Shown in pieces: positions 3,028 through 54,189 of a stretch of DNA of 64,000 nt (position 1 is the stretch's first letter; each line of letters opens with the position of its first letter). Origin of the DNA: Chiloscyllium plagiosum (taxonomy: Eukaryota). A model generated the notes under the pieces. It had not been told where the DNA came from and ran no database searches. It worked only from the letters and a program-made list of their open reading frames with translations. The position numbers and the translations under genes were made by a program. Location of the stretch: positions 463,598 through 527,597 of the forward strand of contig NC_057758.1 of NCBI RefSeq assembly GCF_004010195.1. The letters run 5' to 3'.

Positions 3028-6000
3028 TTATTTGATCGATTTATTAGTAAATGGATAAATGAGAGTCGTCTTCAACTGCTTTCTGAACGTAGTCTGCGCA
3101 ATTAATGTTTGTGCAGTAACTTAGAAGCTTTCGCATGAAGCCCAGTTCCAACATGTCAACAAAAAAACCAAAATCCAAAAGTATATATACCTCTCCAAAT
3201 ACACAAAAACCGATGATCATTGACCATAAGAGAATGAAATTGGTTGAGGTAACAAATAATAAACTAATGTATTTCCTTCAAATCGGCATCTCTTGATCTA
3301 TTCAATTTTCTCCATTTCTGGGAGTTCAATGCCTCCTGCAGGCTCTACTGCTGATCAACGGAAGGTGAAAACAATTGGCATCAAACTGCTTGAAGGCGAA
3401 GGTGACAGTAAACCAGACAGGGCAGTCAGTGGTTGCGTAAAACATTTCAGCGTGGATATTGCACACAGCAATGGAGAACAGGAAGTAAACCTGTTTCTGA
3501 TAAACAATCGGAATGTACCTCAATATCACATCGAGAATAATGAACAATAGATCAGCCACTACCATATCCAACAGGTAAAAACTGACATGTGGAGACAACC
3601 TACAATACTTAAATATTAGGCCGAAGATCCTTACTACATTAACTGCGACAAATGCAAAAAAAATGCATCAACTAGAAGCAAATTTCCAGTGGATTGAGGA
3701 TCTAGTAAGATTTTAAAAAGTCTCACTGTTTGCAGTGCGTTCGTCAGAGTTTTGAACTTCACAGAACAATTGAGAATATCTGAGTTATTAGAAATGTTGT
3801 GAAACAAAATAAAAAAAGGCTCAGTTTTCTACCCAACGGACAGATGCCCATTAATGAGAAGATAAGTTTTAGAACATTCACACCTACCTGATCACCCAAG
3901 AACAAGCACAAGTCAATTTATTACGATTAATAACGCAGAGTGTGAAAGTGTTGCTTTCTTGAAGTATTCTTTACCAGTTTCTTGAAGATAAATGGAGGTT
4001 GGAATTTTCTGCCTATTACTTTGCCATTGATGTACATAACGAATAATAGTTTCCAATTATCTCCAGTCTTTTAAAAACTCCAGTACTTCTCATTCCCATG
4101 CAGTTTTGGATCCATTTCCGTTTTTTTAAGCACACGTTTGTTTCTTTCAAAACGAACTTCGAAGCAGTGTTTTCTTCTGATTGGAACGGGGTTTCATCTC
4201 TCCGGCACTTTATTTTTTGTTTAATTTAATCAGTGCAGCCAATCAAACAAAATATTGGAAATGCAATGTTCCAGATAATCTTCCAAGCAACATCCCGAAT
4301 CAGGAAATGACCAGTCCATAATTATGAAATTTGTGAACAGAAGCAATGTCGCTTTCAATAAAATTAAAACTCTGAAAGGTATCTATCAGAGGTGGATTAG
4401 ACAAAAAATCAACACTGCAAACGTGCTGCATCAAAGAATGAAATCAATGCCTGATCTGATTGTCTCCCGATCTTCATATTTTCACTCACTCCTCGATGTC
4501 ATAAATCCTTTTGTGACTGTCTCAAAACATATCGAATGACTCTGCCCTCGTGGCTTTTGGGAAGATGTTTAACACATTGACAGTTCTCAAACCAAAGAAG
4601 GAAAAATCTCGATATCAATTTTGAGATGCTGCATACAGCCTAAAGGAAAGTGGGCTCTCTTTCTGACTGTGTAAATATTGAGCAAAACAACATAAATAAT
4701 AGAAGCGTTGTGTCGAGATAGGAGTGGAAATAATCGTGGCCTGGTCACAAGCGACTAGAATATACATTATTCACAAATCAAAGCCTTTTTTTCTGTTTCC
4801 AGTTATCCCGGGTCTTATAAAATTTTCAGAACTTATAAAACTTCTAAAATATTCCTAGCAAAATACATAAAACGATAGTTATTTTATTTTCCCTATTCCC
4901 AATATTCAAGTCCGGGGATTCAGTCCAGACAGACATCACCCCTGCTTGAGCACCACAATGAAATGTCTTTGAGTTTAATGTGAGGGCATTCTCCGTGCGT
5001 GTTACATCTTCATTAAATTTACACAGTCACATCTGCTTTATTCTACATTACTGTAAATTGATGTCTGTGTGAGAGAAAGAGACAGAACAACTGAGTCAGA
5101 TCGAGAAGCAACTCGCCTCTGAAAGTCGATGCGGGTTATTCCAGTGTTCTTGGATAAACTGCAGTGCACTTGGCAAAGACGATCATCTTACTTCTTTTCA
5201 GAGCTTGCCTTTTTGAACATCTCAGATCTCTGTGTTGGTCATTTAGCAATTACAATTACAATGTGCCTAAACTCTCCATTACTAGCCCAAAGTTGTATCA
5301 TTTAACCCCCTTCCTCACAGGATGTGTCCATTTTCTCGCAAAGCAACCTCAAGGCAATCGCCCAAACGTGTTCACTAACTTTTGAATATGAGAGTTGACT
5401 AATTTCCCCACCCCAGTTAAATGTTGGTCAACAGAGCCTACGCTTCTTAACTCCAACATTTCATTTATTTTCCTGAATTCACCAGTATTACCTCTGAAGC
5501 ATGTGCACCTCACAATTGCTTTCTCCATAGAATTAAAAAAAAGTCCTTCAGCGTAGAAAACTGCTATTCTTACCTGGTCTGGCCGACATGTGACTCCAGA
5601 CCGCAGCAATGTGTTTGACTCTTAAGTGCTCTCTGTGCAATTAGGAATGGGCAATAGGTGCTGCCTTGCCAGCGACGCCTCACGCCGTGAATGAATTATA
5701 AAAGATGTCCAACAATACAATTCATACCTGTTTTCTGCGTCTTAGCATTCAAAAAGGCAATATCCACATTTATGAGAATTAAAACGAGGTGTACTTTCAG
5801 TATGGAAATTAATGCATAACTGGATTGAAATAATGAGAAGGAATGTTTGAAATGAAAAGAGAAATGGGCATCATTTATAGTCTCACTATTGCACAAGTAA
5901 ATGTAAATGTAAAGATAAAGGCCAGCAGAGTTCCAACGTGTCTAAGTATCTTGAAATAGTTGGCATTTGAGAACGCTGTTAAGAGACAATCAAGCCATGA

Positions 6001-6617
6001 TGTTGCGTGCATGGTATCACATTCAGGCCATTCCTATTAATCAAGCCAGATTTACTACCCGTACATTTACTAGTGAAGCAGATATGCTTTAACAACTGCT
6101 GAAATTTTCTCCACGTTTTTCAGTAAAAGTGGAGTCTGGTTAATAAAGACATATCAGGTGGTTTATTCAGCAGCTGGACTAAGGTGGATGCCTGTTGGTG
6201 ATGTTCTGGAGTTACTAATTGGTAAGATTTGTCCTGGCCACTACACAACAACAAGCATCAACCCAGCTATATAGAGAGTCTTGAAGAATATATAACAGTC
6301 AGGCTGCTTGTTAGGCGTCATTGAGTGATGAGGCTGGATTTGATGAACAAAGAGCGGATTTGGTCATTGAAAGTGAAGGTAATTGTGTCTATCTGCCCGA
6401 AATTAACAAAAAAATTGCAGTTCAATGCTGTTTCGAAATTGAATAACAATAAAAATAACTTACTAGGAAAACCAATAATTGCAATGATGGGATAGTAATC
6501 CGCTTGAATAAAAATCAATACAGCTTTGACCCACATCAGCAATGATGTCAAATCTAGAGGAAGAAAGTAAATGCACAAGTGTAAACTCCTTTCCATTCTT
6601 ATAATATTCAACTTCAT
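3028..6617 (-). pseudogene. GPR139/GPR142-like class A GPCR pseudogene, copy A (exon 1 6464-6617, exon 2 3028-3642)
   Basis: Exon 1 ends ..IQADYYPIIAIIGFP with GTAAGT donor (6458-6463); AG acceptor at 3643-3644; phase-1 join gives P-I-N-V; then YLLDMVVADLL, CNIH..YATTDCPVWFTVTFAF, TM6 LLFVTSTNFILLW, TM7 ELGFMRKLLSYCTN; several stops; TM4-TM5 absent. Confidence 0.85.
5540..5703 (+). mobile_element. Old SINE 3' half with LINE-like tail
   Basis: CTTACCTGGTCTGGCCGACATGTGACTCCAGACC..GGGCAATAGGTGCTG..CCAGCGACGCC..GTGAATGAAT; decayed relative at about 44985-45125; similar tail at about 120-187. Confidence 0.6.
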
Positions 6618-6762
6618 TGCTGTTAGATACTCATCATTTGTTGGAACATTTCAATTGATTGGTCACAGTAGCTGATCTCTTCTCTCTCTGTGGCTTGCAC
6701 TCTTTCTAATGTTGGACGTGATGCTCCGCTGTTACTTTGGGATTAAACATTGAAATGAGCTC

Positions 6763-6800
6763 CTTTTAAAGAGAATAGTGAAACCTGCCCGTGAGACAAT
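6763..6800 (-). promoter_or_regulatory. Putative core promoter of GPCR copy A: ATTGTCTCAC-20 bp-TTTAAAAG
   Basis: About 150 bp upstream of the exon 1 ATG; the same motif pair occurs upstream of copy C. Confidence 0.45.
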
Positions 6801-6989
6801 TATGATCTATGTAGACTGACAATATACACAATCACTGAACACATTATGTTCAGTTAACTCCAACTGATACTGTACTTTTAGATCACAATAATGTAGAACA
6901 TTTTCCTTGCCTGCGTGCGATGTATGAGCATAGACAAGGAAAGGCAGTATGGCAGGGCAGAATGATTAATGATAACCACAAAATATTAA

Positions 6990-14660: not shown

Positions 14661-14689
14661 AATGGGAAAGATTCGGAATGGATTTCACT

Positions 14690-15256: not shown

Positions 15257-17030
15257 GAAGGCATGGTCAAGAGGAGGTTTCCAGATCCGATAGAGTAGGG
15301 ATACCCAGAAGTGCCTTGCAGACAGCAAGGGATTGCACAGAGGGACGAGTAAACAGCAGGGATATCCGACAGGAGAAATAATGAAGATTACATCTTGCAG
15401 GCATACTTTTGTGGAAAGCATTACGAGTTGAGAAGGCTGAATTGACTTATCCTTTCGGCATTCCAACCATCTGCACTTCAGCCCATCCCTTGTGTTCCTC
15501 GACAAACTGAATACTATTTTGGCACATGAAATCTGAAGCAGGTGCTGATATAGAGGATCCACAGAATTGGCAGCATCTGCAGATAGAGACGGAGAGAGGG
15601 AAGCAGATTTCATGTTTCCAGTCTGTACTGGTCCATGTTCAAGATTTCTTAGAAAGGGAACTCGAAATGTGAACATTGTTTCTCTCGCACCTCGCAAGTT
15701 GCCACAGTGGTTTAGTTTCACCGCCTTTCTCCGTGCTCGACTTTCCAATTGGAAGATATCCTTGTCTCCCACCGTCACCCAGATGCCCTTATCTTCAGCA
15801 GCATTGATTTAGCCTGTTATCACGAGCGACACGGCCAGCTAAATCAATGCTTTTGGAACTTCTGCTGATCCCCGTCCATTCACTCCTTGAGCAGGAGCAC
15901 CGGAGCATTTTATGTAAATGAACAGATGACTCCGTAGTTAATCATCACACAGCTACGGCAAGTATAGTCTCCACCAATAACGTGCGAGAGGATCAGATCA
16001 GTGATCGTACCCATCATGAATAGGATTGTGCAAAACTTCCATCAAGCTGTTTATACATGTCGTGGCACATGTCAGTGATGATCTTTGGCTGAGTTGGGAA
16101 TCAAACATCTGAATTCTGGACTTGAATTTCAGTCCCACGTCTCATCAGGAGTCTATGCAACCGAAGAGACTCCTTGAGCATGCAGCCAGCAACCTTATCT
16201 TTATGAGCACCATCTCAGACCTCCTTAATGTACTGGCTGCCATTGTCTTTCTCGTTCGTCAGCAGAGGTACTAGTAGAAATCAGGGTAAGTTGTTCGTCG
16301 TGTGTGTTTAGAGACAAATTAATATTTTCCAAACAGCAAGGGTACAGAATGCACTAATCATTAAAAGGTCATAACAACTATTTTCGTGCACCCGGCCACA
16401 GTCAAAGAAAACTATTTGTGAAACCTGACGTCCCCCTGGTCCTGCATCACATTCAAAATTTATATCATTGCGACTGTATTGTCTCTTTAACGTTTCCGTC
16501 AAATGCATTGCCCCACATTTCCCTGCATTTATTTTTATCTGACAGATGTCTGATCATTTGTTTAAGTTGCCAATGTGTGTCAGTGTCATTCTCACAAATG
16601 ACTTCTCCCCTCATTTAGTGTGGTTTGCAAACTTCGACGTTTGCCTTCAACACCCGTCTGCAAATCATTTGTTTAAATTGTAGGAAGCAAGGGTCACAGC
16701 ACCAATCTCTGTGGAGTACCACAATTAAATTTTCTCCAATTTGAGGAATATCATCTATACCTACCCCTTTTTTCACTATCTGTCAGTCAACATCGACTCT
16801 GTGTGGCCAATAATCCATCGTTTCTAATCATTTCTAATTTGCTAACCAACCTCATCTGGCAACGCACCAAATACTTCAGGAAAGTCTAAATATGCAAAAT
16901 CCATAACACTACGCTCATTCAATGCCTATGTCACCTCATAAAAGACCTCAATCAAATATGTCAGACCTGACATGCCCTTGACAAAACCATGTTGACTATC
17001 TGTGGTGTAAACTGACTTTTTTTTTAAACT

Positions 17031-17318
17031 TAGATTAGATTAGATTACTTACAGTGTGGAAACAGGCCCTTTGGCCCAACAAGATGTCGATTCACAAGGT
17101 GTGCACCCACCCACCCAGGCCTATTCCCCTGTATTTACCCCTGCACCTAACACTATGGGCAATTTAGCATGGTCAATTCACCTAACCTGCACATTTTTGG
17201 ACTGGGGGAGGAAACCCACTCAGACACGGGGAGAATGTGCACACTCAACACAGTCAGTCGCCTGAGGCAGGAATTGAACCCGGGTCTCTGGCGCTGTGAG
17301 GCAGCAGTGCCAACCACT
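17031..17318 (-). mobile_element. HE1-like tRNA-derived V-SINE
   Basis: B box GGTTCAATTCC, V-domain TTCTCCCCGTGTCTG..GGGTTTCCTCC, (TCTAA)n tail. Confidence 0.92.
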
Positions 17319-17954
17319 TTTTTCTCTCCGTTTATTTTTAACTTAACCTGCACTATCGCCTCCATTATTTTTTCAACCATTGACATAAAGCTGACGGGCC
17401 TGTAATTTATTGGGTTACCTCTTATTTCTTTCTGAAACAACGGTGCCACACTGGCGATCCTCCAACCCCATAGAGGCATTTCTGTGCTCCGAAAGATCTT
17501 TAAACTTTCTGGCAGTAGTTAAACATTTTTTTCCCTTTCTTCTCTCAACAATACAGGATGCATCCCACCTGTATCTGTAGGCTCCTGTCCCTGGCATCCT
17601 GTCAACCTTTACAGCACCTCTTCTTTATCAATAACTTTTATGTTCAGTTATTAAACGCATGTATTTTCAAATAGACCGTTGTTGCCATCTTCTTACTTGT
17701 TCAATGTATTCATTTCTGAACTCTGCCATACTCTTTGCTTCAGTGAGCAGTTTACCCTGCCTGTTCCTCATAGCTATCACGCAATCCTTCACAAATGTAT
17801 TCTTATTAATATGTTTGATGAATACTTCATTGTTTATTTTAGCACAGACGTGCCATTATTTAACCATGCTTCGTCGGAGCCATCCTTATTCAACCCTCAG
17901 TCTCTCTCTTGCATTTGAGATACTCTTTGAGATTTCTGCTGATCCTACTATTTT

Positions 17955-18233
17955 TTAGATTAGATTACTTACAGTGTGGAAACAGGCCCTTCGGCCCAAC
18001 AAGTCCACACCGCCCCGCCAAAGCGCAACCCACCCATACCCCTACATTTACCCCTTACCTAACACTACGGGCAATTTAGCATGGCCAATTCACCTGACCT
18101 GCACATCTTTGGACTGTGGGAGGAAACCGGAGCAACCGGAGGAAACCCACGCAGACACGGGGAGAACGTGCAAACTCCACACAGTCAGTCGCCTGAGTCG
18201 GGAATTGAACCGGAGTCTCTGGCGCTGTGAGGC
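17955..18233 (-). mobile_element. HE1-like V-SINE, 5'-truncated
   Basis: Near-identical to the other six copies. Confidence 0.92.
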
Positions 18234-19119: not shown

Positions 19120-19940
19120 AGGGAGCACTGCATATGTCAGTGCTGAGGGAGCGTCTCCATGTCGGCTGGTCTGTGCAGAAGGAGTCATTTGGTCACCAAT
19201 ATGGTCACTAATGAGTGCACTTCGTCATTCAATATGCCAGCACAGAGCAATGGTGAACTTCACCAGAATTGGGGCTGACAATCTGAAAGTTAGTTCGAAG
19301 GAAGCACCACACTGTCAGATAGTCTGTTCACAAGGAGGCACTCCTTGTCACCATTGCTTTCACGATTGGGGGAACATGGCAGTTGAATGTGTCACTGTAG
19401 AAAGTGAGTGAACTGTTCGACGCTGAGATTTGAACGTTCGTCACATTATCGGATGGTCAAGCCAAGGTGAACGCCACACAGTCGGAGGATCAGAGTCCAT
19501 GGAGAACCACACTTATGGAAAATCAGTGTTGAGGGAGCCCTGCACTGTCAGAGGGTTAGTCCAGAGGGATCAGTCGGAGGATCAGAGTCCATGGAGCACC
19601 ACACTTATGGAAAATCAGTGTTGAGGGAGCCCTGCACTGTCAGAGGGTTAGTCCAGAGGGATCCCCACACAGTTGGATGGTCATTGCTGTGGGCAAGCTT
19701 CACTACTAGAGAGTAGGTACAGGAGGTTTCTGTACTGCCTGAATCACAGTGTTGAGGGATTCGTGCACTACTGGACTGTCAGTAATGATGAGGTGTTGTG
19801 CTACAGCAGGTTCAGTCCTGATGGAGCGGGAGCCATATCAGGTCAGTGCTGAGGCATTGCCACACTGTCAGAGTTCATGCTGTGATAGCACCGCTGTGTC
19901 TGAGTTTCAACAAAGAGGTAACGCCACATTGACTCCACAG
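19120..19940 (+). repeat. Decayed ~33-bp minisatellite (CAGTGCTGAGGGAG..CACTGTCAGAGG) containing a 92-bp tandem duplication
   Basis: Recurrent GAGGGAG..CACTGTC motif; 19479-19570 and 19571-19662 differ by one base. Confidence 0.7.
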
Positions 19941-23100: not shown

Positions 23101-23731
23101 TAGACAGGATTATTAAGAAAGCATATTGTGTTTTGGTTTTCATTAACAGGGGAATTGAGTTTAAGAGTCGTGAGATCGTGTTGCAGCTCTATAAAACTTT
23201 GGTTAGACCGCACTTGGAATACTGTGTCCAGTTCTGGTCGCCCTATTATAGGAAAGATGTGGATACTTTAGAGAAGGTTCAGAGGAAGTTTACCAGGATG
23301 CTGCCTGGACTGGAGGGCTTACCTTATGAAGAGAGGTGGACTGAGCACGGACGTTTTTCACTGGAGAAAAGGTGGAGGAGAGGGGACCTAATTGAGGTGT
23401 ACAAGTTAATGAGTGGCATAGATAGAGTCGATAGCCAGAGACTAATTCCCAGGGCAGAAATGGCTAACGCGAGGGGTCATAGTTTTAAGCTGGTTGGAGG
23501 AAAGTATAGAGAGGATGTCAGAGGCAGGTTCTTTACAAAGAGAGTTGTGAGAGCATGGAATGCGTTGCCAACAGCAGCTGTGGTAGCAAGGTCATTGGGG
23601 ACATTTAAGAGACTGTTGGACATGCATATGGTCACGGAAATTTGAGGGTGGATACATGAGGATCAATGGTCCGCACAACATCGTGGGCTGAAGGGCCTGT
23701 TCTGTGCTGTACGGTTCTATGTTCTATGTTC
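20120..23731 (+). mobile_element. Long CR1 LINE (ORF1 end, APE endonuclease, RT, tail), frameshifted
   Basis: YNARSI, AITETW, IIGDFNFP, VYMDFSKAFD, GVPQGSVLGP, KFADD, RPHLEYCVQFWSP; (GTTCTAT)n tail at about 23715-23731. Confidence 0.95.
21441..21630 (-). mobile_element. PLE pLTR fragment inserted in CR1
   Basis: Minus strand CCGAAGAAGGGCTTATGCCCGAAACGTCGATTCTCC..GGATGCTGCCTGACCTGCTG; hammerhead core with U4->C. Confidence 0.8.
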
Positions 23732-24782: not shown

Positions 24783-26667
24783 TCTCAAGGAAAATTAGTG
24801 GTGAACATAAAATATTAAATTGGGTTATGAAGCACGCATCTCATGAATAACTATAAGTAATGAGCTGGAATTCAGAGAGACAAGCGCAGGATGTGAAACA
24901 AGCACTTGTTTCACATTCTGACTCCTCACGAGTTATGACTTAACATGAGAACAAGTGAACACTTGACACAGAGTTAAAAACAGAATGATAGAATCTGCAC
25001 CATTGATGTAGAACGTGAGAGTTCCTTCATTCACTGGTAAAATGAGGCACAACATTAGACAGCACAGATTTCAGGAAGACTAAATACTGTGATTGCTATC
25101 ATTGTCTAATGCATTTAACGATAAGATTAAATGGATAGTTCAGCAGTTCCTTCAACTGCACTCTGAACTTAGTCTGGGTCACGGCATAAAAACAAGTGTT
25201 TGGAAAGCAACTGAGCAGCTGCAGCATGAAGCCCATTTCAAGTACAATTTCAGACATTCATATAGATTTGTAAGCAAAGAAATATATCCGACCCCATAGA
25301 GAATAAAGCATCAACATTGTCCCTAACAATACAAAATTCCCTGAGATAACAAACAATAAAATTATTGATTTCCTTCTGTTCTCCATCTCTGGGTCTTTGG
25401 AACTTTCCCCACTGTTATGGCCCGGGGTCTCTTGCGGGCTCTGCTGGTCAGTAAGATGCATCTGATTGCAAAAGTGTTGAGAAGTAGAATCAAAATAAAA
25501 GGAACACATGGAGATAAAATATGTTGCACGAACTATAATGCTGTCCATGCCACTGATATCCCTAGCCCCTTGTGAACACCCCAAAACCATGGAGAGTTCT
25601 GAAGAGTGTACTGGTCTGTAAACATCAAAACCCAGAAAATGTTCTTTATGAAACTCACCACGATCACTGCAGACAAAACGAAAGCCGCTGATTCCTTCAT
25701 ACAAAATTTCATTTTCAAATTCTGACAAGAAATAAACACAAATTGATCGAAGGTGAAAGTGACAGTGAACCAAACAGACCTGTCTGTGACTGTATAAAGC
25801 AGGGCAGCATGAATATTACACAATGGGAGAGTCTTCAGGAATAAAAGAATGCTCCCAATAAACAATAGGAACGCGCTTAATGTTAAGTCGAGGATAATTA
25901 CCAGTAGATCGAATATTGACATTGTTATCAGGTAGAGAGTGACACATGTCTAAAGTTTGCATTTTCCACGAGAGAGAATCATAATTGTCAAGATGTTAAC
26001 TACAAGAAAGGAAAAGATATTGGAAAGTCAGGCTAAGGATCAATGTGATAATATAGGATGCACAACTGTATTCAAAGTCATTATTTCTACAGGCTTATTC
26101 TGTGTTTTGCAAGTAAGTAAAATGAATCTCACTGGAAACATTGCTTGGATGCCTTCTCGCTTGCAAAGTTTGAGCCGTAGATTGCAGATGAATTAGACAC
26201 AGGAAGTTGTTTACGAAATGAGATTTTACCGGCAACAAATCCCTGAGTTGTCTGTGATCCAGTTATCGATCACAACGAACTTCTGCTGACAACAGTAAAG
26301 TGATTCATTCTTGTTTTATCTGAACAATTTCGGACGCTGCGTCAGGCCCACAGACGCCATCAGTTCTCCAGCAGCGAAGGACCTGAATCCGTTTTCTGCC
26401 GCAAGTGCCATGTTAATCATGAAGAAAATCAATTCATCTCCCCAAGAGCTTCATCTCTGAGTTGCGAGTTTTAATGCCTGAGACGCAGACCTTTTATGAA
26501 TGTACCCAGCACCCTGTGCCTCTGCAAATCGGTAAAAGCATCCCGAAAAGTATAATCAAGAAGTAGTATTATCAGCAGAACAAGAACCATCTCGCCTGAT
26601 GCTGTGCAAAGAGACTCTGGCTTGCTTTTCCATTTTTCTTGCATTGCTTAACACTTTTGTTGGTTTC

Positions 26668-26702
26668 GTGTGTGTGGTGTATGTATAGTGTGCGTGTGTG
26701 TT

Positions 26703-26774
<72 letters not shown>
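26668..26774. repeat. Compound (TG)n(GA)n microsatellite
   Basis: About 29 perfect GA units at 26716-26774, preceded by imperfect TG. Confidence 0.98.
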
Positions 26775-26775
<1 letters not shown>

Positions 26776-26849
26776 CAACGGCTGAGAAGAGGATTTGCCT
26801 TTAAACTTGTATGTTATAGGCCGATGATTCACAATAACTATAGACAATT

Positions 26850-27676
26850 CCCAGTACAGGTCGACAGGAGGCTGGAAGAACGCAGCAAGCCAAGAGGTGG
26901 AGAAGTCGATGTTTCTTGTGTAATCCGTGTTCAGGACTGAGGATCGTCATGGGGAGAGGAAATGCAGATAAAGGGGATGATAGGGTATAGGTGGTGAAGT
27001 AGAGATAGGTGAAGACAAGTAGGGGGTATTTGGTTGGTCAATGGGAGGAATAAACCCGCTTTTTGGCAGGGAGCATTGAAAGGGATGGGGAGAGGATGGG
27101 AAGGTAGTCATAGAATGTGAGGAACGTTATTTGAATTCGGACGACGCAACTTTGAGTCCTCCGGATGAGGCTTTCCGTGCAGATGATGAAGTATCGTTCC
27201 TTCAATTTGTGATGTGGTTTGTTTTGGTGATGGAGGAGGCCGACGATGGTCATGTCACAAAAGAAGCGGTTGGTGGAATTGAAGTGGACCTTGACGGGAG
27301 GGACGGGTTGACTTATATGTATCCAGCTGTGATGCTTAGTGAACTGTTTCCAAATTATACATTAGGTCTCTCTGCAGTAGAGAAGACCACAACGGGAGCA
27401 CCTGAAGCAGTAAACTAGTTTGGAAGAGAGGCAGATAAAGGTCTGTGAAACCTGGAAAGAATGTTTGACCCCCGCACGGACTTGAGGGCGATGGTATACT
27501 GCAGCTTTTCTATCTTTTCTGATTGAAAGTGAATGTGCAGATGGTTCAGGGGTGTCGGTGGAGACAGTAGCACAAACTAAGGACTGTTTGAAGGGAATGT
27601 CCTTACAGGAGGCAGAGAGGGTTGTGGAACGGAAGATGTTGTCGGTGGTGGATAATATTTGGCGCTGGCAGAAATG
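26850..27676 (-). mobile_element. Decayed Neptune-type PLE 3' fragment
   Basis: Reverse-complement similarity to 49400-50280; pLTR-like end at 26860-26940. Confidence 0.65.
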
Positions 27677-28325
27677 TTTAAAGATGAGACAGGATGCAGA
27701 ACTGGGCTGAGAATTGGCAGATAGAGTTCATCCTAGATAAATGCAAAGTGATATATTTTGAAACGTCTAACTTGAATGTTGAATATAGGATTGAAGACAG
27801 GATTCCTGGCGGTGTGGAGGAACAGCGGAATTTTGATTTCAAGTACATAGATCCCTCAAAGTTGCCACGCAAGTGGATACGGTTGTTAAGAAAGCATATG
27901 GTGTTCTGGCTTTCATTAATAGGGAGATCGAATTTAAGAGCCACGAGGTTTTGATCCAGCTCTTCACGTCCCTGGTGAGACCACACTTGGAATATTGTAT
28001 CCAGTTCTGTTCGCACTACTATTGGAAAGATACAAAGAAGGTTTACCAGGATGCTACTGGACTGGAGGGCTTGCCCTGGACAGAAGGAGGAAGCGAGGTG
28101 ACCTGATAGAGGCATGCAAGATAATGAGAGGAATGCATAGAGACAATAGCCAGAGACTTTTCCCCAGGGCAGGATTGACTGGTAAGATGGGTCATCGTTT
28201 TGATATATTAGGAGGCATCAGAGGAATGTTCCTTACACAGACAGTTGTGTTTTCATGGAATGCGTTGGCAGCAGTGTTGGTGGAAGCAGACGCATTACGG
28301 ACTTCTAAGAGAATGCTGGACATGG
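27677..28325 (+). mobile_element. CR1 RT/3' fragment
   Basis: KKAYGVLAFINREIEFKSHEV..RPHLEYCIQF in ORF 27873..28106. Confidence 0.9.
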
Positions 28326-28329
28326 CCAA

Positions 28330-28740
28330 AGGGTAAAGAGAGGAGGTCACGTTCCTGATGTCCATGGTGCAGTGGGAGGGAGAGTTGAAGTGTTCAGCTA
28401 CAGGGCGGTGGAGTTGGCTGATATAAGTGTCCCAGAGATGTTCCCTAACACGATCCGCAATTTGGTGTCTTGCCTATCCAATGTAGAGGGGACCACTTTG
28501 GGTGTAACAGATATGGTAAATGACATTTGTGAGTCTCTCCGTGACTCCCTTGTCAGATCCAAACGCCCTTCACCGCTGTCACCAGCCCTCACCGCAATCC
28601 CTGGAGCTTCCCCGCCACTGCAGGAAATGCTAAACCTGCCCGCATACTTGCCCCTCACCTCCGTCCAAGATCCCAAGGCATCCTTCCATATCTGACAGAA
28701 ATTTGCCTGTATCTTCACAAATGTCATCTATTGTCTCCAT
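28330..28740. mobile_element. Neptune-type PLE GIY-YIG fragment with internal inversion
   Basis: 28330-28532 matches 49660-49870 in reverse; 28533-28740 matches 49490-49690 forward. Confidence 0.65.
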
Positions 28741-30394
28741 TTAGAGGATTTGGTCAGCAGGATTTGAAAAGCGAGCACGTACCTGGGAATTCATAGTGAC
28801 ATGAATGGTTTACTGAGGAAGCAAATAGCCAAAATTGTTAGACAGGGAGAAATATGCAGAAGGACAGTAATGGTGTCTGTTAAAAGTGATTCCGCTTCCA
28901 AAATTAAACTTATGTGCAGCATGTCTGAAAATGAGATGGTGTCAATCAGCCAATAGCTGCAGGCCACGAATTAGCGCATCCACAGCAGAGACAAACTTAG
29001 TTCAAATATATCACCAGTGCATCAATTGTTGAGCAAAGTCATTAGTTTCGATCAGACATTGAACTGCAAATAAGGGCAGCCATAGAAATGAATGTCGATG
29101 TGAAAAACATTTAAGAGAAGCGGACACAACAGCATTCATTAGACCGAGATTGCATGAAATGAGCATTTACAAGGGAATGTGAAATCGATTTGAAATGGAG
29201 AGATTGATGGCATTTCTGTAGACACTGTCTAAATGCGAAAAAGAAGTCATAGAGAATTCCGTGTAACAATGAGAATTCTTATCCAGCTGGGTAACCATGT
29301 TTCAGTGACTACAGGCACGCTGCTATAACAGCATGAAATGTGAGACGAAGGGTGATCTATCAGTTTCAGGTGAATTCTCATTGATAAGATTTGGCGGAGA
29401 GAGCTTCGGAGCAGGTGAATGTAGTATTAGCAGAAACATGGATGACGTTTCATACAGCAGTCAGTTCAGGGAGAGCGGGAGTTGGCATGCCCATGGAGCT
29501 GGTTGGAGGCAGAACTCATTCAGTCATGATCGGAGCTCCGGGCTCAGACGAGCCGCAGTGGGAATGATAAGATTGTGTGCAATCTATGCCAAGTACACGC
29601 ACTGAGTTGGCAGGATGATATTATCAATGGAAACCGAGAAGATTGTGTGCAGGAGACTGCAGACAATGGACCTGGCTTTCAAAAGTCTGAACAAGGGGAA
29701 TGTGAAATCGATTTGAAATGGGGAGATTGACGTCATCTTCCGTAGGCGCTGTCTAAGTGGGAAGATGATGTCATGGAGAATTCTGTGCATAACACCGAAA
29801 AACCTTATTCAGTTGGGAGACCATGTTTCATCAGTTTCAATAAGAATTTCAACAGCACATTGAGGTACAGATTATTGATCTAACATCTGAAGACTTTGAC
29901 TTACCAGTACAGAATGAGCAGATAGGTCATGAAAGAGGACATGACGAGGTCAATTACACAATTATCATTGATCAATACATTTCATAGTTGTACACAGACA
30001 CTCCCAAGAACACGAGGAGACAGGAAATAACAAGATTATCCTTTCAGTAAAGCATGCTTTCCGACATTTATTTCTGACTTGAGGTTCTTACGTGGGACCC
30101 CAATAATAGACAGAATGGGATAGTAAAAATGCTGCATTATCCGAACTGTTCAATTGATCCACGATTGGAAATACATCCATTTATGGTTCTCATAAATGCA
30201 ATTAAGCTCATATGATAAAATCTTCCGTGATGAAGTTAAATTAGAGAGTGTTCTTCCCATATCGTCTTCCATTCTCATAACAATCTCTGCGACTCGGATC
30301 AAGCCTTGCCCTTTGTCATTAGCTGCAGATCAGCATAGGAGTTGACACAGCGCTCTCTCTGATAGAATGAAAGGACAAATTAGGAGTCAGGTCA

Positions 30395-30431
30395 CTTTTA
30401 AATGTCAACGGGAACGCACCAGTGACACAAT
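30395..30431 (-). promoter_or_regulatory. Putative core promoter of GPCR copy C: ATTGTGTCAC-19 bp-TTTAAAAG
   Basis: About 120 bp upstream of the ATG; matches the copy A motif pair. Confidence 0.45.
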
Positions 30432-30433
30432 GA

Positions 30434-30742
30434 TTAGGTTAATTTACTTACAGTGTGGAAACAGGCCCTTTGGACCAACAAGTCCACACCGATCCGCTGA
30501 AGCTCAACCCGCCCAGACCCATTCCCCTACATTTAGCCCTTAACATAACACTACGGGCAACTTAGCGTGGCCAATTCATCTAACCTGCACATTTTTGGAC
30601 ATGAGGGAGGAAACTGGAGCACCCGGAGGAAACCTACGCAGAATGTGCAACCTCCACTCAGACAGTCGCCTGAGGCGGGAATTGAACCCGGTCTCTGTCG
30701 CTGTGAGGCAGCAGTGCTAACCACTGTATCACGGTGCTGCCC
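30434..30742 (-). mobile_element. HE1-like V-SINE, full length
   Basis: GGGCAGCACCGTGATACAGTGG start, B box, V-domain, tail. Confidence 0.92.
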
Positions 30743-31890
30743 ATTTGCCCTTCCTCTCACCCCGGAGACCGTTGTTAATCTGTACCTCAAGTGGAGTATG
30801 TGCACTTTCCACTCGGTGATTATTAAGCAAGAACAAAAAATACCTTCTGCTCCAACGTTTTCAAAAATGCACCAGAGCTTCCTGAACACGTGGAACCAAG
30901 CCTTTGAAACGGCAGTAAAGTAAGATCGGGCAGAGAGGTGAACACACAATCGATGCTTTCCATTAGAGTTTTGCAGCACATTCACATTGAAGAGATTTTT
31001 GCTGCCGACAGACAAACCTCTAACATTTGTAATCTTTGCACACACTTTCCGGTCATTGGCAATGTCGAAAGCAGATGAGGCATTGTGCACAATGGCCATC
31101 TACCCGCGTTCAGAGGATGATCCATCCAGGTCTGCTGAGTTGCCAGGAGAACAGCGATTTTTCCGGTTTCAGCGAATTCACTTCCTATCAGATGGCATCA
31201 ACAAGCTGCTGAAGGCATTGATTACTAGTTTTGCCATCAATTGTCTGGTGCAGCACAGGACATTCAGCCTCTTTTTTCCCTACCCACCAACATCAGCAGA
31301 GACATGACAATGTGATCAACAGAGCAGGAGTGCCCTGCACAGAATAATGCAAAGCAAAACAATAATCCAGCCAGTTTTCATCTCTCCCTCTGACGCCCTC
31401 CCTCGCAACCAGAGATAGGACTGTTATTGAATGCGCCATCATTCCATGCAGACACAACTGATCGCTGTTCAGTGCGATATCCACACAGACGTCTTCGTGC
31501 AGCTCTGTCCCGAAGATGAAAGGAATTGCATTAGAGCTTTGAGGCAAGATGGAGTACTTCTGTTACAAGTCAGTGTTTTCAGAGTCATGGAGTCACACAT
31601 GGCCAACTCATCCATTCCAAGCAGAGAATTCAATCTGACCTCGTCCCATTTGGCTGCAATTGCCTCATATACCACCAAATCTTTCTCATTCAAATAATTA
31701 TTCAGATGCAGTTTAAAACTCGTAGTTTTTCCCGCTGCCACCACTTCCTGTGCCAACTCATTTCATGCATGCACCGTCTGTGTGCAAACTTTCCTCTCCT
31801 GTAACTTACAAATCATTCCCCTCTGGCAATAATACTTGACTCCCAATTTTAAATTCCCCTCCACTACGATATAGAACTTGGCTCGTAGGT

Positions 31891-32202
31891 GATTAGATTA
31901 GATTAGATTACTTACAGTATGGAAACAGGCCCTTCAGCCCAACAAGTCCACACCACCCCGCCGAAGCGCAACCCACCCATACTCCTACATTTACCACTTA
32001 CCTATCACTACGGGCAATTTAGCATGTCCAATTCACCTTACCTGCACATCTTTTGGACTGTGGGAGGAAACCGGAGCACCCGGAGGAAACCCACGCAGAC
32101 ACGGGGAGAACGTGCAAACTCCCCACTGTCAGTTGCCTGAGGCGAGAATTGAACCCGGGTCTCTGGCGCTGTGAGGCAGCAGTGCTAACCACCGTGCTGC
32201 CC
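31891..32202 (-). mobile_element. HE1-like V-SINE
   Basis: Same family; (TCTAA)4 tail. Confidence 0.92.
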
Positions 32203-33510: not shown

Positions 33511-35084
33511 GCATTACTGGGGGAGTACTTCACCATTGGAAGGTCACTGCTGAGGGTTCGGTGCACTGCTGAAGGATAAATGCCGCTCCTAATGATATGT
33601 GGTACTTGTAACAGGGAAATTCTTTCTGTACGTTCTGCTCAGTCAATAATTCAATCACCACCTGATGCAAGCCTGCTCAAAATGGCCGTCAGTTTTTGAA
33701 CTGCACACATTACAATTCACTCTTAATGGTCGGCCAACAAGCAGGGTATATTTTACTCCAGCTTAGTGTGGATCTTAATTTTCTTTCCACTCTGAGCACA
33801 GGGTGTGAGGTTCATACTGCCGATGTGCGGAAGAGCACGCTCCCAAATAGAAGGGTCTTGTGTCCCTGGCAGTCTTCTTTGCTCCAAAGAAAAAAAAATG
33901 TCCGAGCATATCCAGTTTCACTCCGTGGCTGAACTGCTCTAAAAATCATAATACAGTGCAGCACAGAAACATACCCTGCTGCCCGTCATGCCTATGTCGA
34001 CCATGCTGCCATGCGAAACTGCTCCCGTCTGCCTGCAAATGTGTACGCCTCCATTTTATGCCGATGTGCGTGTCTGTCTAAACGCCTATTTACAGTTTCT
34101 ATCGTATTCGTTTCCACCACCCATTCCTCAATGTGTTCTAGGCACCCACTATCTTCTGTGTAAAAACGATTCCAAGCCCGTTTCCTTTCCACTTGTGCAC
34201 TCACAAGAGGGAGCACAAATCCAAAAGCTTGTGATTTCAAATAACCACTTTGGACTATAACCTGATGTCATGTGACCTCTGACATCATTATAGAGTTTTC
34301 TTATCAGTGGCTAGAACAACAACTGAATTTACAGTTCAGAGTTCAATCTCTGAAGTTCATATTAACTTTGCCGATGCTAACTGCAGGTTTCAATGACTTT
34401 CTGGTCTCTGCTTTCGAGTTGTAACGACAGGTTGGCAAAAAATTGGAGAAGTGTGTAAACTTCAAGGATATTTAGCTGTTGAGATTGAGTTAACTCCATA
34501 AGTGCTGATTGTTTCTCAGTTGTTGCCAGAATGACATTCAGTGGATTGTGAAAGACTGCAGGTATAACACAATAAAGTCTATATGACACTACGCGTGATT
34601 CTCGCTGTACGTTCTGCAGTCTGCATCTATGTTGATTGTCCTCATCCCCACAAGCCATTCTGCACAGTTTTCGAATCCTCAATACAGCCGTTCACTGCAT
34701 TTGCTCGTGTCCCACGATGTGGGTCTAATTTCAGGTTGTGATCGATAGGCACTGTACTGTTTTCGTCGACAATTTCCAGAAATACCAATGACATGCTCAC
34801 GTCTGTATGCTCCAAATTAACCATCTTCATCGAATCACAGTTTTGTGTTGAAAGTAAATACACCGCTGCCATACTTCGGAAGTATAACAAGAGGGATAAT
34901 AGACAATACTTTCTAAACCGTTAGTGATCTGGAAGGCCAAACGTGGCACATACATGGAAAAGCCACTCCCTTCTAACTGTCGTCCAATACCGTCATCATT
35001 CTGATTTAGAAATATACCAGTCGATCCTTTACTGTAGCCAGGCCAAAAATCCTGGAATTCCCTCCCTGACGGTTTATTAGTGCG

Positions 35085-35211: not shown

Positions 35212-36379
35212 CTTTATGTGTGTGCCTGCAGTACGTGACTGCAGTGGCTCAGGAAGGAGCACATGAATTCCCATTCCCTTCCTACATCACCTGGGCATGG
35301 GAGATAAATGCTGGACGGGCTCTGCATCAGAAATGAACTCAATACTGCTTAGGCTTCAGATAGGCCTAACACGTGAGATTTCCTTCTCCCCCTCCACGGC
35401 TCTCTGACCCAGTCCTGGTCTTTTTGCTGCGTGGAGAAATGTTTTCCATCCATCTGTTATGTTCCACTCTCGACCACGCACTGTGAAACTGCTCAGCGCT
35501 TCCAAGCGTTCAGACATGACTGCAATAATTTAAGAATCTTAAAATGGTTGTGGTGGTGGTGGTGGCGGGGGGGGGTGGTGGTAGGGCAACTGCTCAAGGT
35601 AATGTTTACTGGACCACGACGTAGGATGTCAGCAACAAGACACATCACACAAAGCCTATCTCTCTCTACATATCTCTCTCCCTTTCTTTGTCCCGCTTTT
35701 CCCCTGGTATTTGAGAAATTTTCTTTCTAACTTTATATCGGTTTCTGCCTCTTTTTACGTGTCTCTCTGCCTCTGTCTCTAATAAATAATGAATATATTA
35801 CTAATGCCCACGTCTCACGAGTAAATCTAAAAAGTCTAGGATTGTCTGCTATATGATAATAAACGGGAAGACGGTAGACGTTGATATAATCCCTCGACAA
35901 TTAAGTATTAGACTTCCATTGTTGATAGTATTATTGTTGATAGCTTCTCATTTATCCAGAACCTGAGAAAAAATATTTTGGAGTGTTTTCGGTCCACACC
36001 AGGCGATGACGGAATTTGCATTGATTAGAAATTTTAGCATTGAGAACCTACTGTTTATGAATTTCTACATCTTCTGTCCCAATTTCTTTGAAATCATCCG
36101 CTTTCTACCGGAAAGTGAAGAAATAAATGCCTGAAGGTTCCGTCAACAGCTCTGCTTTGTCAAATTGTTAGAGAGAAACGTCTTGGCGTCAGTGCCAAAA
36201 TCAGAACATGGCACTATATTGCAGAATCAGAATATGGCACTATATTGCAGAATAAAACTACACAGAGCACCACAGCAACACAGTAGCCCCTCCAAAAAAA
36301 AAAGAAAAAGAAGACCTTCATCGACTTCTCTCAAACCTCATTCCATTCTGGTTAATCCAAGATGGATGACCGAAAAACT

Positions 36380-41640: not shown

Positions 41641-42504
41641 CATCACAGGAGAAAGTAAGGACAGGGCAATTTAAAACGACCGTCTGAGCTCTTCGTTGAA
41701 TACTTCCCCTTCCCCGGGGACCAGGACCCATGGCCTAAGAATTTCTCAGCTCAGATTCTTTAACAAAAAGACAAAATGATCGGTTCACTCTGCTGCTGAA
41801 CACTTTTTAATGAACAAATTTATTGTTTAGAAAGTTCAGTAGAAGATTGAGTAAGTGGACTGTCGCATTTTTGCTCTTGCCCTCAAGTCGACAGAAACAT
41901 TGAAATGTAATTAATAATCTATATGAAAAGCTGGATAAGCCAGCACTACAGTCAGTCTTTCAGCGTAAGGGCAGGCTGATTCCTTGCTACAAATTTGAAA
42001 AGAACTGAGATCATACGTGGAGCGATTCATTAATTTCGGAAATATGATTGATTCATTGATTGATTGCTGGGGTAAAGAAATTTTTCAGCGCATTTTTCAG
42101 CTGCTGCCCTAGATTAATTTACGGCACTGCATATCTCACTGTGTTTGGGTGGCAACTGCTTCATAAACCCCAATTCTTGAACAAACTAACGTAGCTACAT
42201 ATATTCCTGTGCCAAACCATACATCTGGTAACCTATACAGTTCATCATTAATGTTGAACAACGCAGGATAAAATTGGTCGAGATCACAAATAGTAAGATG
42301 AAGTTCTCCTGACAGCATTGTATTTCATGAATATTATGCTTTCACCTTTTGAGTGGAGTGGTAGAGACGAACCAAGAAATTGCAGACTGGCATATCATGC
42401 CAGTGGTAATAAAAGATTTTGAGATAATTCTAATGGAGTGCATTGAAATACAGTTTGAAAGGCAGAGCTTCATTCGGGATAATCATCATGACTGTCAGAG
42501 GGAA

Positions 42505-42659: not shown

Positions 42660-45600
42660 AATTCAGAGGGAAGTCATGTGTAACACATTTGCGAGGATTT
42701 TTTGGAAATGTGATCAATTTTGTGGATGAAGAAAGTTCAATTGACGTAAGTTTATATATATTTTGGCAAAGCGTTTGACAATGTCCGACCAGAAGACTTA
42801 TTAGGGAGGTTAAAGCTCATGAAATTGAGGGAAACCTGGTGAGATGGATGAGAAAATTGCCTAGAGGCTGGAGTCTGTTTTCCAATGTGTATCACAAGTG
42901 TCAGTGCTGGGCCATTATTGGTTGTTTTATCCATAAATGATACAGATGAACATGTGGGAGGTATGCAAAGCAAATTTCCACAGAACGTCAAGATGGTTAG
43001 AGTGGTTAATTGCGAGAAAAGATTGTATAAATCTGTATAAAGAATTGGATGGGTTGGCCAGAGTGGGGAGATGAGTGGCAGGAGGCATTCAATCCCGATA
43101 ATTGCAAGTCCATACACTTTGGAAGAAAAAAAAAGCTGAGTGAGTATGTAACGAACAACCAAACACTGGATAGCTGAGAGGAACAGAGGGGTCTTCGGAC
43201 AATTATTCACAGGTTTCTTAAGTCGGCAAAACACGTGAACAGGATAGTTACCAAGGCATATTGGACACTTCGGTTTTATCAGGCTTGGCACAGAGTGATA
43301 AGAACATCGAGAAAATGTTGTAGTCGCACAGAGAGTTGGTGAAACCACAGGTGGAATAGTTTGTGCAATTATGTTCATCTCACGATCAGATAGATGTCAA
43401 CACTCGAGCGAATACCGAGGAGGTTCATCAGGATGTTCCCTGGTATGGATAATTTGAGCGAAAAGAAAGGATTAGATAGGCTTAGAATGTTTTTTTTGGA
43501 GAAGAGATGGCCGAGTTGGTCTTGATTGAGGTATATAAAATTAGGATGGTTATTAAAAGGTGAATGCAGTAGAGTTGTTTACCTTGTTTGAGGACTTAAT
43601 CATGACAGGACATAGTTATCGGTTAAGGTAAAAGAGATTCAAATGGGATTTGAAAAAATCTAAACTTTCTCTGTCATCGGGTGATGAAAATTTGGAATTC
43701 AAAGCCAGGGAAGATCGTGGTGTGTGGAAAATTAGAACGTTGGAAAAACTGGTTGAGCACTTCATACATCATAACAACTAAAGGTACGGACCGAGTGCAG
43801 GAAATTGTGAAGGATGCACTTTTACTGGTAGTTATGTCGTGCAGACTCGGTGAGCCAAAGGGACATTTCTGCTGTGACTAAATCTATCAATCGATGAAGT
43901 CAGTATCTCTCTGACTGTACCCATTTTTATGTGAGTCTGAAGCCTCTCGTGGGCTCTGCTTGTTACTAAAATGTATCTGAGGGTGAAAACATTGAACAGC
44001 AGAATTAGAGAAAATGGGAGAGATGGGATTAAATGTAGTGCATGAACTCAATTGTGACACAGACCCGACAGTAATTAACACCATTTGTTACATCCCAAAA
44101 CAGAGGAGGTTCACCACTTGTGCTTTCGTGTTTGGGTTATTGTAACTGAATGAACACAGTTCTGAAACCTGAGACTTCTAAATTGTCAGTCTAACACTCT
44201 TCCAGACGTTACTCTCGAAATGATCACTTTACAGAGTCATTTGCATCGTTCACCCATTCACAACGGAAGCACTTTTCGACAAATCCTTTTCACCAGCACA
44301 CGTGTCAATATTTCCCTGGAGGACACTGCATATGTTCCACTTGGTGTCAGCAAATGCAGCGAAATTTTCTTAAAAAACTGAACGTCAAAAGTAGCATCTC
44401 TCCACTAATACATGATCCATGGCACAACTAGCAAGAGAAAATGAAAATTGATATAACAGCATTTGGATAAATGGGAATGATTCCACATATGATGCCTGTT
44501 TGGAATTGTCAGGGCATGCTTGATGTCCATTTTATCGAATCATTTGAATAAATGTTTTCAATGCAGATGATGATAATATAGAAACTAAAGCAATAGAAAA
44601 TAATGCAAAATGTATATGCCGACATTTCTCAGCAAACGAATGCCTGTGGTACGGTACTTGCCTCGGTCTATCCTTACTGAACTCTAAATGGAATTGCTAA
44701 CAGTATACAGTTCTGAACTATGTTTATCAGAACAGTTTTTTATGACCTGAATGATATAAACATGGAATTCGTTTTGCACGAGTGTGAACCCAACACAAAG
44801 ATTAATGATCTCAGTTGGAATTTAGAAACCAGAAATTGCTACACAATAGATACATCAAGGTTTGATGTATAGCTCTTTCAGCCCAATTCTGATTGGGGAA
44901 TTAATACTCAATGAGAAGAAAAGCAAGGGAAATATTGCATTGAGGGTCATTGCTGAAGGAATAAAAGCAAATTTTCACCAAAGTCCTTTCGCAAAGGAAG
45001 TCACAATTCTTACCTGGCCTGGAATCTCGGTGACTCTAGATACAGTCACTTTGTTGAATTTCAATGCGTTTTAGGGCAATTTGAGCAATACATGATGGTC
45101 CAGACAATGACGGTAACATGCTAGGATTTGTTTTTAACGTGTGGATATGCGTTGGTTGAACTGTTGCGCAAAGACAATTTGTGCAATTCAATCGCCTACT
45201 TATGGCATTACATTAATCATTGAATTTACAAGTCTGAAAAATCCTACATTGGCTCATCTATTCTTCAAACCTTAGCCTTTTAGAGATACTTTCTGTGCAG
45301 TATTTTACAGGGAAAAAGCATTTGGATTTCAAAGAAATTGGCTAAGCTGACTGGTTCTCTTCACATGTGCGAAATTTAAATGTTTATTCACTTATTATCT
45401 TTCACTTACTGAATTTATCACTCTTCAATTTTTCGAACGTTTACACTCACTTTTGGAAGTTCGTTAAAATTCCAAGCAGTTTTAACTTGCTCGTTACACA
45501 TGAACCCAACAGTCAATCAAAAAAAAAGTAAATGTAACCAATAAATCTGCACAGCGTATATTGATTTTAATGTGGTTTCCCCAAAAAGCGTTGGCGTTTT

Positions 45601-45959
45601 GATGGTCCGTCCTCAAGCCATCTTACTGATAGGATGAACCCCTTCCAAGAATTCAGTGTTCATACTTGCAGCTCAGATCATTTCCATTGAAAGTCATTCT
45701 CATTCTCTAATTTTCCTAGCAGCAAAAGGCAAGGTGACCGATAAGGACATTGAACGTTTTTCAATGTTGTCTTTCATTTTAAAGTTGTACATCAACAGAA
45801 TTAGGAAACACCTCAGAATCCGAAAACTGCAGATTTATAATTGTGTTTCTGAAATAGTGTAAATGTACAGCTGAAGAAAAATAATTGTTCTCAAATCCCA
45901 ATTGATTGTCTCTCAGCTGATGACCTAAAACTCTTGTGTCCCGCGCAGAATTTTCGTTT

Positions 45960-46730
45960 CTATTGCCAGTTAGACTTTTCAGAACTTCAGTTACTTTCTT
46001 TTGGATTTTCGTTAACTTATACGAAATGAAAGTCTTAATAACGCTGTACAAAGATTTCATTTCTGAAATAATTATGTCATGTATTTCACAATTAGCAAAA
46101 CGATGGACTTCCTGCGGTTCTCCGTTTCTGAATCTCTTTGAATTCTAGTTTTGTACTCAGGAAGCCAGTGCAGGTTTTATTCATCATGACAATACGTTGG
46201 AAAGTTAATGAATTAAACAAGACAATCACAGTAACGGGAGTCCAAATAACCCAAGCACGGTAAAACCAGACCAGACATATATTTGACCTGCAAAAGAGGA
46301 ATAATACGCTGTCCATAACTGGCACCACCTTGCACTTGGTTAATTAGTATCTCACGTTCATAAGCAAACAAAACTGGAATTTCATTCAATCTGATCAAAA
46401 CCGTGATCGATAATATTAGCGGGATTGCTGTTGTTTCGGAATAAACCCTTATTTCAAACTTCAGACAGCAGATCACAATAAATAAGTCAAATGTGAAAGC
46501 GCCAATGTGACAAAGAGATAAATCGGGAGTGACTGCAATCATGCAAATAATGATTCTGCAACACAAATACAGGTCAGGAAAGACAAAGAAAATAGGTAAT
46601 TGAAAATGTGGTCGGGTTTTTGATCAGATCAGTAGACCTGTTTCTGCCATGGCCAACTTGTAACCAGTCAGAAACTTGGAAAGTGGGGCAAAACTTTCTT
46701 GGCTATGGCTTCCCTCCCGGTTAACGAATC
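45960..46730 (-). pseudogene. GPR139/GPR142-like GPCR pseudogene, copy D (divergent subfamily)
   Basis: LSKFLTGYKLAMAETGLL, GAFTFDLFIVICCLKF, IPVLFAYE, VIWTPVTVIVLFNSLT, ENRRKSIVLL, then TFISYKLTKIQKKVTEVLKS (TM7/helix 8-like); frameshifts and stops. Confidence 0.8.
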
Positions 46731-54173: not shown

Positions 54174-54189
54174 ACCTATAATTCAGTCA

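Follow-up and report, generated by a model that had tools for sequence, protein, structure and literature searches.

GPR139 and GPR142 are class A orphans among the G-protein coupled receptors (GPCRs) and are activated by L-Trp and L-Phe, and the chemoreceptor families of vertebrates have ligand pockets that vary among paralogues and are conserved among orthologues. In GPR139, residues F109, H187, W241 and N271 are reported to be required for activation, also for that by Trp and Phe (PMC5430874). The positive charge at R244 (position 6.51) is described as critical, and arginine 6.51 is said to occur in no class A receptors other than GPR139 and GPR142 (PMC8807744). In cartilaginous fishes GPCRs are reported to be few (PMC8455134), and the olfactory receptor (OR) repertoires, with 20-62 genes per genome and a mean of 43.8, to be the smallest among vertebrate groups (PMC10869828). 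Against this background we analysed a stretch of 64,000 nucleotides from Chiloscyllium plagiosum, referred to as the window, which holds four GPCR pseudogenes, copies A, C, D and E.

The four copies are very probably relics, decayed long ago, of a class A GPCR family whose genes have two exons and of which sharks and skates have many intact members. With the same high confidence, we place this family within the group of GPR139/142 and MIP/FMRFamide receptors, yet as a clade of its own, and conclude from sequence comparison that it kept its signalling side (R3.50, W6.48 and the cysteines joining transmembrane helix (TM) 3 to the second extracellular loop (ECL2)) as its pocket diversified. More tentatively, at a probability of about 0.4, the copies would be relics of an undescribed vertebrate chemoreceptor family from the GPR139/neuropeptide-receptor lineage, with hundreds of genes in sharks and rays, exceeding all their known olfactory receptor families together.

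Four decayed receptor copies on one strand

The window was searched with a family hidden Markov model (HMM) built from 120 listed intact homologues. Matches fell in four places and on the minus strand only; the top plus-strand score was -4.5, and the top score in a shuffled-window control (n=20) was -0.5. Domain scores were highest for the second exon of copy C (268.6 and 150.6 bits), followed by the second exon of copy A (105.4 and 52.1 bits), copy E (32.3 and 31.1 bits) and copy D (30.5 bits), and the first exons of C and A scored 14.8 and 10.2 bits. The start of TM6 is present in D as well as in E, so that the two overlap in their protein coordinates and represent two genes. Four distinct remnants of a single GPCR family thus lie on the minus strand of the window, which bears out a preliminary description of this DNA that had counted at least four paralogous seven-transmembrane (7TM) pseudogenes there. 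The shared orientation is weak evidence by itself, as the chance of all four copies lying on one strand is 1 in 8. The pieces are as follows (ICL, intracellular loop; LINE, long interspersed nuclear element).

6464..6617, minus strand: copy A exon 1, covering the N-terminus and the beginning of TM1, with YYPIIAIIGFP and one further base at its end; the frame is open from 6617, where its first ATG lies
3643..6463, minus strand: copy A phase-1 intron, GT...AG, 2821 bases
3028..3642, minus strand: copy A exon 2, TM1-TM3, followed near 3368 by the loss of ~88 codons, from the end of TM3 to TM5
3328, 3304 and 3280, minus strand: TGA stops of copy A exon 2, with a frameshift near 3106; R3.50 reads Q
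30092..30278, minus strand: copy C exon 1, with an in-frame TGA at 30152 and another in-frame ATG behind it at 30137
26000..30091, minus strand: copy C phase-1 intron, GT...AG, 4092 bases, containing a LINE reverse-transcriptase fragment at ~27688-28324
25099..25999, minus strand: copy C exon 2, full TM1-TM7 and helix 8; 170/298 residues identical to the intact homologue P0003
25952, 25535 and 25260, minus strand: stops of copy C exon 2, with a frameshift near 25426; R3.50 reads Q and W6.48 reads G
43899..44115, minus strand: first piece of copy E, ECL2, TM5 and ICL3, with two frameshifts
42665..43507, plus strand: LINE reverse-transcriptase fragment inside the 1.56 kb that split copy E at ICL3
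42083..42336, minus strand: second piece of copy E, TM6-TM7, with stops and a frameshift
46087..46683, minus strand: copy D, reaching from ICL1 to where TM6 starts, ~five frameshifts, both ends missing; 99/207 residues identical to P0173

Copies A and C share a phase-1 GT-AG intron at the identical codon, after YYPIxxIIGxP, as had been described before. D and E are incomplete and have no exon 1, the two pieces of E being consecutive in the protein and 1.56 kb apart, and no family sequence was found in the window for the part of E upstream of ECL2. The 3’ end of D and the 5’ part of E are missing, and just 2 kb separate the two copies (44115-46087); a single deletion could account for both losses. 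The motifs earlier listed as shared hold up in part: exact RGKC, SVWFTV, DPEME, KSIILL and GFML occur in C only, and A, D and E carry decayed versions of them.

Stops, frameshifts or deletions occur in all four copies, so that every copy is dead, as had been stated. The arginine at 3.50, kept in 52/52 family representatives, reads Q in A and C and L in D. The lesions of C exon 2 could be followed in two DNA sequencing runs, X1 and X2, which are two samples of one study, one of which may be the source of the window. A contig from X1 over 25183-25645 differed at one letter (25469) with no gap, and contigs from X2 covered 25360-25582 (one other letter) and 25835-26012 (no difference), jointly spanning with the X1 contig all three stops and the frameshift. 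As the lesions recur in both runs, they are not assembly errors. Other contigs were ~88-90% identical to C, intron sequence included (window positions 25206-26446), and hence show that C has close relatives elsewhere in the organism; a one-base deletion and a one-base insertion, both frameshifting, were present in one of these contigs.

An expanded elasmobranch family and its ligand pocket

With the 188 N-terminal residues from C exon 2 as query, which gave 1390 candidates, we found 420 proteins matching at E<=1e-5. Among the 120 of these that were listed, all came from elasmobranchs (sharks or a skate), were 40-56% identical to C and bore the name ‘probable’ or ‘putative G-protein coupled receptor 139’; they comprised 54 from Heterodontus, 38 from Heptranchias, 18 from Pristiophorus, 4 from Stegostoma, 3 from Scyliorhinus and one each from Carcharodon, Mustelus and Rhinoraja. 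Over the 7TM core (one fused Heptranchias model excluded), the 54 Heterodontus proteins formed 47 clusters at 95% identity and 40 at 90%, and the persistence of 47 clusters at 95% indicates that these entries are not isoforms. At least 90% of that core was covered by every entry tested from Heterodontus (54), Heptranchias (37) and Pristiophorus (18), and a profile of 51 of the 120 recovered, with fragments counted, 132 representatives of clusters formed at 50% identity (E<=1e-30). An elasmobranch family with a birth-and-death pattern and many intact paralogues, as foreseen in the preliminary description, is therefore supported by the 420 homologues and the 47 Heterodontus clusters.

The window’s own organism probably has hundreds of copies, a rough estimate since read depth is not a copy number. 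Two Chiloscyllium plagiosum DNA runs yielded 355 and 431 contigs on C exon 2 at >=85% likeness, the summed depth over the TM7 motif peaked at 35,000 and 67,000 versus ~6-17 for single pieces, and mean depth per contig at 25216 was ~190-590 times single-piece depth. The family thus appears larger than the 20-62 olfactory receptor genes known per cartilaginous fish genome. Its public annotation is noisy: P0134, P0199, P0254, P0167 and others are database models that include mobile-element sequence, and P0002 consists of fused copies. No description of the expanded family was found in the literature searched, which did not cover subscription papers or the supplement of PMC11979771. GPR139 appeared 0 times in the body text of PMC11979771, PMC8455134, PMC10115646, PMC10869828 and PMC13320880, the 24 supplements of PMC8455134 held one GPR142 orthogroup label, and the available part of PMC12844162 mentions just teleost gpr142a/b. 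A large, apparently undescribed family stands in RefSeq under an automatic and misleading name.

By sequence profile and predicted structure, this is a family of class A (rhodopsin-like) GPCRs. All 51 intact homologues examined matched Pfam 7tm_1; at E<=0.01 the other models matched were Srx (5/51), DUF7535 (4) and UL41A (1), and none of the 51 matched an OR, V1R/ORA, T2R or V2R model. The window pieces alone reached 7tm_1 only at E 0.015 and 0.088. The predicted structure of intact P0003 (mean predicted local distance difference test score, pLDDT, 78) had an ordinary class A fold, with template-modelling scores of ~0.6-0.7 to class A structures; Foldseek does not separate class A families, and GPR139 ranked 19th and 28th with E-values like those of others. 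As a single query against the PDB, P0001 gave no match at E<=1, and a profile was needed. With the profile, GPR139 was the best match (55.8 bits, E 3.6e-14; next 40.3 bits) and is the nearest solved relative, as had been proposed, which explains the database name; the PAF receptor followed at E 1.8e-9, amine receptors reached at most 36.7 bits, and no TAAR or OR chain was among the 57 PDB hits. The same profile gave 155.0 bits for the coelacanth protein P0243 101.7 bits for the amphioxus protein P0261 and 100.9 bits for P0262, scores that measure likeness and are not a phylogeny.

In a 45-row tree, the expanded family formed one clade (support 98/96), with the group of P0243 (100/100) and the amphioxus proteins (100/100) outside it. 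Copies A, C and E fell in one subfamily (100/100), and D paired with P0173 (100/99) in another; A, C, D and E as a single clade was rejected by the approximately unbiased (AU) test (p=9.3e-5), a grouping named after the first tree had been seen. Since D belongs to a different subfamily, the cluster mixes old lineages and is not one recent tandem burst, contrary to the earlier proposal of a single local amplification. A local clade of A, C and E, which the first tree had joined weakly (0.76), was also dropped because the careful tree separates C from A plus E. With P0261 as query, 9 proteins were recovered, which are from amphioxus where they bear a name and include no vertebrate GPR139; the amphioxus ‘GPR139’ proteins keep R6.51 in 7/7. 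The protostome MIP/sex peptide, FMRFamide, proctolin and myosuppressin receptors belong to the same superfamily (PMC8514136).

P0243 is the top-scoring full-length relative outside the expanded clade, and the gene that it represents is the family’s closest outside relative by profile score, a conserved and apparently low-copy gene of non-mammalian vertebrates with a GPR139-like polar pocket. Its group includes sharks (P0280, P0283, P0287), coelacanth, sturgeon, teleosts, amphibians, turtles and squamates, mostly with one entry per named species; of 145 rows 120 were listed, 33 of them bearing no name, and no mammal or bird appeared among the named ones. P0243 is not GPR139 either, as it scores just 70.4 bits against it, and the gene has the look of a third vertebrate member, as yet without a name, of the GPR139/142 group; no description of it as a family was found in the literature searched. 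Within it R6.51 is present in 119/119, an acidic residue at 3.29 in 120/120 and D7.35/36 in 118/120. It differs from the expanded family in that the pocket is conserved, R6.51 is kept and W6.48 is replaced, and the two have C3.25 and the ECL2 cysteine in common. The gene serves as a control, with R6.51 the likely ancestral state for the expanded family. Two entries of the group are named ‘TMEM183A isoform’, hinting that the gene adjoins TMEM183A.

GPR139 residues were mapped through the profile alignment (chain number minus 212), and the pocket was defined as 28 canonical class A columns, a list that we take to follow class A numbering. Among 52 full-length family representatives, mean entropy was 2.68 in the pocket, 2.01 at other outer positions (p=0.0002) and 1.20 at inner positions, and R3.50 was present in 52/52, W6.48 in 50/52 and C3.25 in 48/52; the TM3-ECL2 cysteine pair is kept in the family. 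In the 120 sequences of the P0243 gene the relation was reversed (pocket 0.72 versus outer 1.20, p=0.01). At matched non-pocket identity of 0.45-0.55, pocket identity was 0.23 in the family (1462 pairs) versus 0.65 in the P0243 gene (1077 pairs), and at 0.55-0.65 it was 0.30 versus 0.70. Such diversification of the pocket speaks for a variety of ligands.

The subfamily of A, C and E was represented by 119 sequences picked for their likeness to C. At 6.51 the five commonest residues among the 119 were F (59), L (45), Y (11), H (2) and S (1), with R in 0/119; the window copies read I (A), L (C) and L (E), and R was not among the five commonest residues in the 52 representatives. Y/F3.33 (113/119), H5.43 (114/119) and W6.48 (119/119) were kept, 7.38, the N271 site, was F/Y/L in 119/119, and 3.32 was L in 117/119. 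The last of these counts argues against TAAR membership, since aminergic receptors have D3.32 and amine receptors scored no higher than given above. The likeness to GPR139/142 lies in the YYxLLxxxGxPxN start of TM1, the aromatic residue at 3.33, H5.43, W6.48, the acidic residue at 7.35/36 and the absence of proline at 7.50 (GPR139 residues: PMC5430874, PMC8807744). The family differs from GPR139 in its many copies against one, in ~23% identity in the fold alignment, in not retaining R6.51, N7.38 and E3.29/E3.32 in the A/C/E subfamily, and in having C3.25 and the ECL2 cysteine, where the aligned GPR139 chain has no cysteine. With closer relatives at hand and key pocket residues altered, the suggestion that the copies are GPR139/142 paralogues sensing aromatic amino acids was not supported.

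Flanking sequence and repeats in the window

No fifth copy was found in the 64-kb window by HMM or tblastn; the remaining tblastn hits were rejected as single-query matches to mobile-element sequence within faulty gene models that overlap window repeats. The copies have no flanks in common except mobile elements and the exon-1 end, and the window shows no flanking host genes. One octamer precedes both first exons as a candidate promoter remnant, a motif chosen after looking and present at 5 sites on the minus strand of the window:

6763..6770, minus strand: TATA-like octamer before A, 153 bases ahead of the first in-frame ATG
30395..30402, minus strand: the same octamer before C, 124 bases ahead of the first in-frame ATG

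The window has a guanine-plus-cytosine content of 37-50%, is rich in LINE, GIY-YIG-bearing and SINE-like (short interspersed nuclear element) repeats, and ~25% of it matches itself elsewhere. A 309-codon open stretch at 49033-49962 matches GIY-YIG (E 0.00014) and is one that we take to be Penelope-like, with similar pieces near 1300-1860, 27000-27700, 28350-28750 and 59250-61800. Two long plus-strand LINE copies, presumably CR1-like, lie at 20371-23731 and 50377-53644, ~70% alike and with reverse-transcriptase matches. SINE-like interspersed repeats of ~300 bases, 77-90% alike, occupy 17030-17318, 17951-18233, 30432-30743 and 31891-32197, and others of the same family 53639-54174, 56637-56941 and 60647-60970. 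There are two short tandem duplications: at 36196-36258, at a distance of 5.9 kb from C exon 1, a 26-mer is present 2.5 times, and at 19479-19663 a unit of 92 bases is present twice, the two being 98% alike.

What the receptors may detect

We propose that an ancestral metabolite or peptide receptor, resembling the conserved R6.51 gene, would have lost its arginine 6.51 anchor, a loss that may have freed the pocket. Whole two-exon genes multiplied by duplication at the DNA level, as the shared intron and the intron-bearing relatives of C (~88-90% identical) show; they diverged into subfamilies with different pockets, and many of them died. Selection may have held the G-protein side and favoured new ligands, with subfamilies binding different ligands, and redundant copies would die through stops, deletions and LINE insertions, as in the window. 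It is plausible, at a little under even odds, that the family senses external chemicals in a sensory epithelium of the nose, the mouth or the skin. Like the OR, TAAR, V1R/ORA, V2R/OlfC and T2R families, it shows clusters, pseudogenes, lineage-specific expansion and a pocket that varies among paralogues; unlike them, it has a coding intron after the start of TM1, and by sequence it belongs to none of them. The features found are those of chemosensory-type families: a large clustered family, frequent pseudogenes, and a pocket variable among paralogues and conserved in the P0243-gene control.

Expression was assessed in two RNA runs of the same sample. In X5 (single-cell poly(A)), 10 of 12.96 million records fell on C exon 2, none at >=95% identity, so the reads come from paralogues and not from C. 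The first mate was on the plus strand in 10/10, as expected for sense transcripts, and a loose end reads, in our own translation, as the ICL3-like peptide AHTNGDAQSD. X6 gave 0 of 8.3 million records on C exon 2, a count with no discriminating power. The X5 reads show that some family members are transcribed and say no more than that.

Several points weigh against the overall reading, the chemosensory role included. Pocket diversity tells of many ligands and not of where they originate, and immune and peptide receptor families likewise have it. Within the A/C/E subfamily the pocket is no more variable than the remainder (entropy 0.80 versus 0.98, 119 sequences), with pocket identity of 0.74 at a non-pocket identity of 0.72. 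The 52 representatives are unnamed, were chosen to be <50% alike and may include faulty gene models, and the sequence pairs compared are non-independent. The 45-row tree was built without true GPR139 and GPR142 and did not resolve the order of the outside groups; the depth-based copy estimate is rough; and the RNA runs are coded without tissue. A published list of the 50 genes most specific to a library from catshark brain and olfactory epithelium includes no GPCR (PMC11979771). That gene list also misses sparse receptors of known families, yet it lends no support.

Among the alternatives, the one that survives best, though it is rather unlikely, is an internal surveillance repertoire in which immune, mast-like, gut or skin cells would sense microbial, parasite or damage molecules in the manner of FPR or MRGPR receptors. 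Clusters, pseudogenes and a variable pocket fit those families, and with MAS1 and its relatives reported absent from cartilaginous fishes (PMC8455134), the role would be vacant. The family is, however, not close to chemokine, FPR or MAS receptors, its best PDB matches being GPR139 and then the PAF receptor at the E-values given above.

Less probable still are receptors for the animals’ own diversified peptides or metabolites, whether neural, endocrine, reproductive or pheromone-like cues. Families of hormone receptors do not usually run to dozens or hundreds of rapidly turning-over paralogues, and we know of no ligand family that would match, although no search for one was made. The retained TM3-ECL2 cysteine pair and the Atlas neighbours, which are FMRFamide-receptor-like clusters, do favour it, as does a wider group that holds MIP, FMRFamide, proctolin and myosuppressin receptors together with GPR139/142 (PMC8514136).

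We consider it improbable that the amplification was mostly neutral, with a duplication-prone two-exon cassette spreading through a repeat-rich, slowly changing genome and few copies mattering. That 4/4 window copies are dead, and that the ~88-90% identical relatives of C with intron elsewhere include one with frameshifting indels, would agree with it; the coverage of >=90% of the 7TM core by all Heterodontus (54), Heptranchias (37) and Pristiophorus (18) entries tested does not, and inner TM columns much more conserved than the pocket (1.20 versus 2.68) are unexpected under drift. Simple extra copies of GPR139/GPR142 sensing L-Trp and L-Phe are very improbable: the database names, the best solved match and the Y/F3.33, H5.43 and W6.48 of the A/C/E subfamily agree with them, but human GPR139 (55.8 bits) scores below the P0243 gene (155.0) and amphioxus P0261 (101.7), and R6.51, where charge is critical (PMC8807744), is found in 0/119 subfamily members with N271 changed to F/Y/L.

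The window itself contributes dead copies only, and its interest lies in the family to which they lead. If the chemoreceptor reading is true, it would explain how cartilaginous fishes combine large olfactory organs with only 20-62 known receptor genes. Whatever the tissue in which it acts, a hidden family whose ligand pocket has diversified, and one subfamily of which numbers at least 47 distinct proteins in a single shark, challenges the picture of a small receptor repertoire in these animals.

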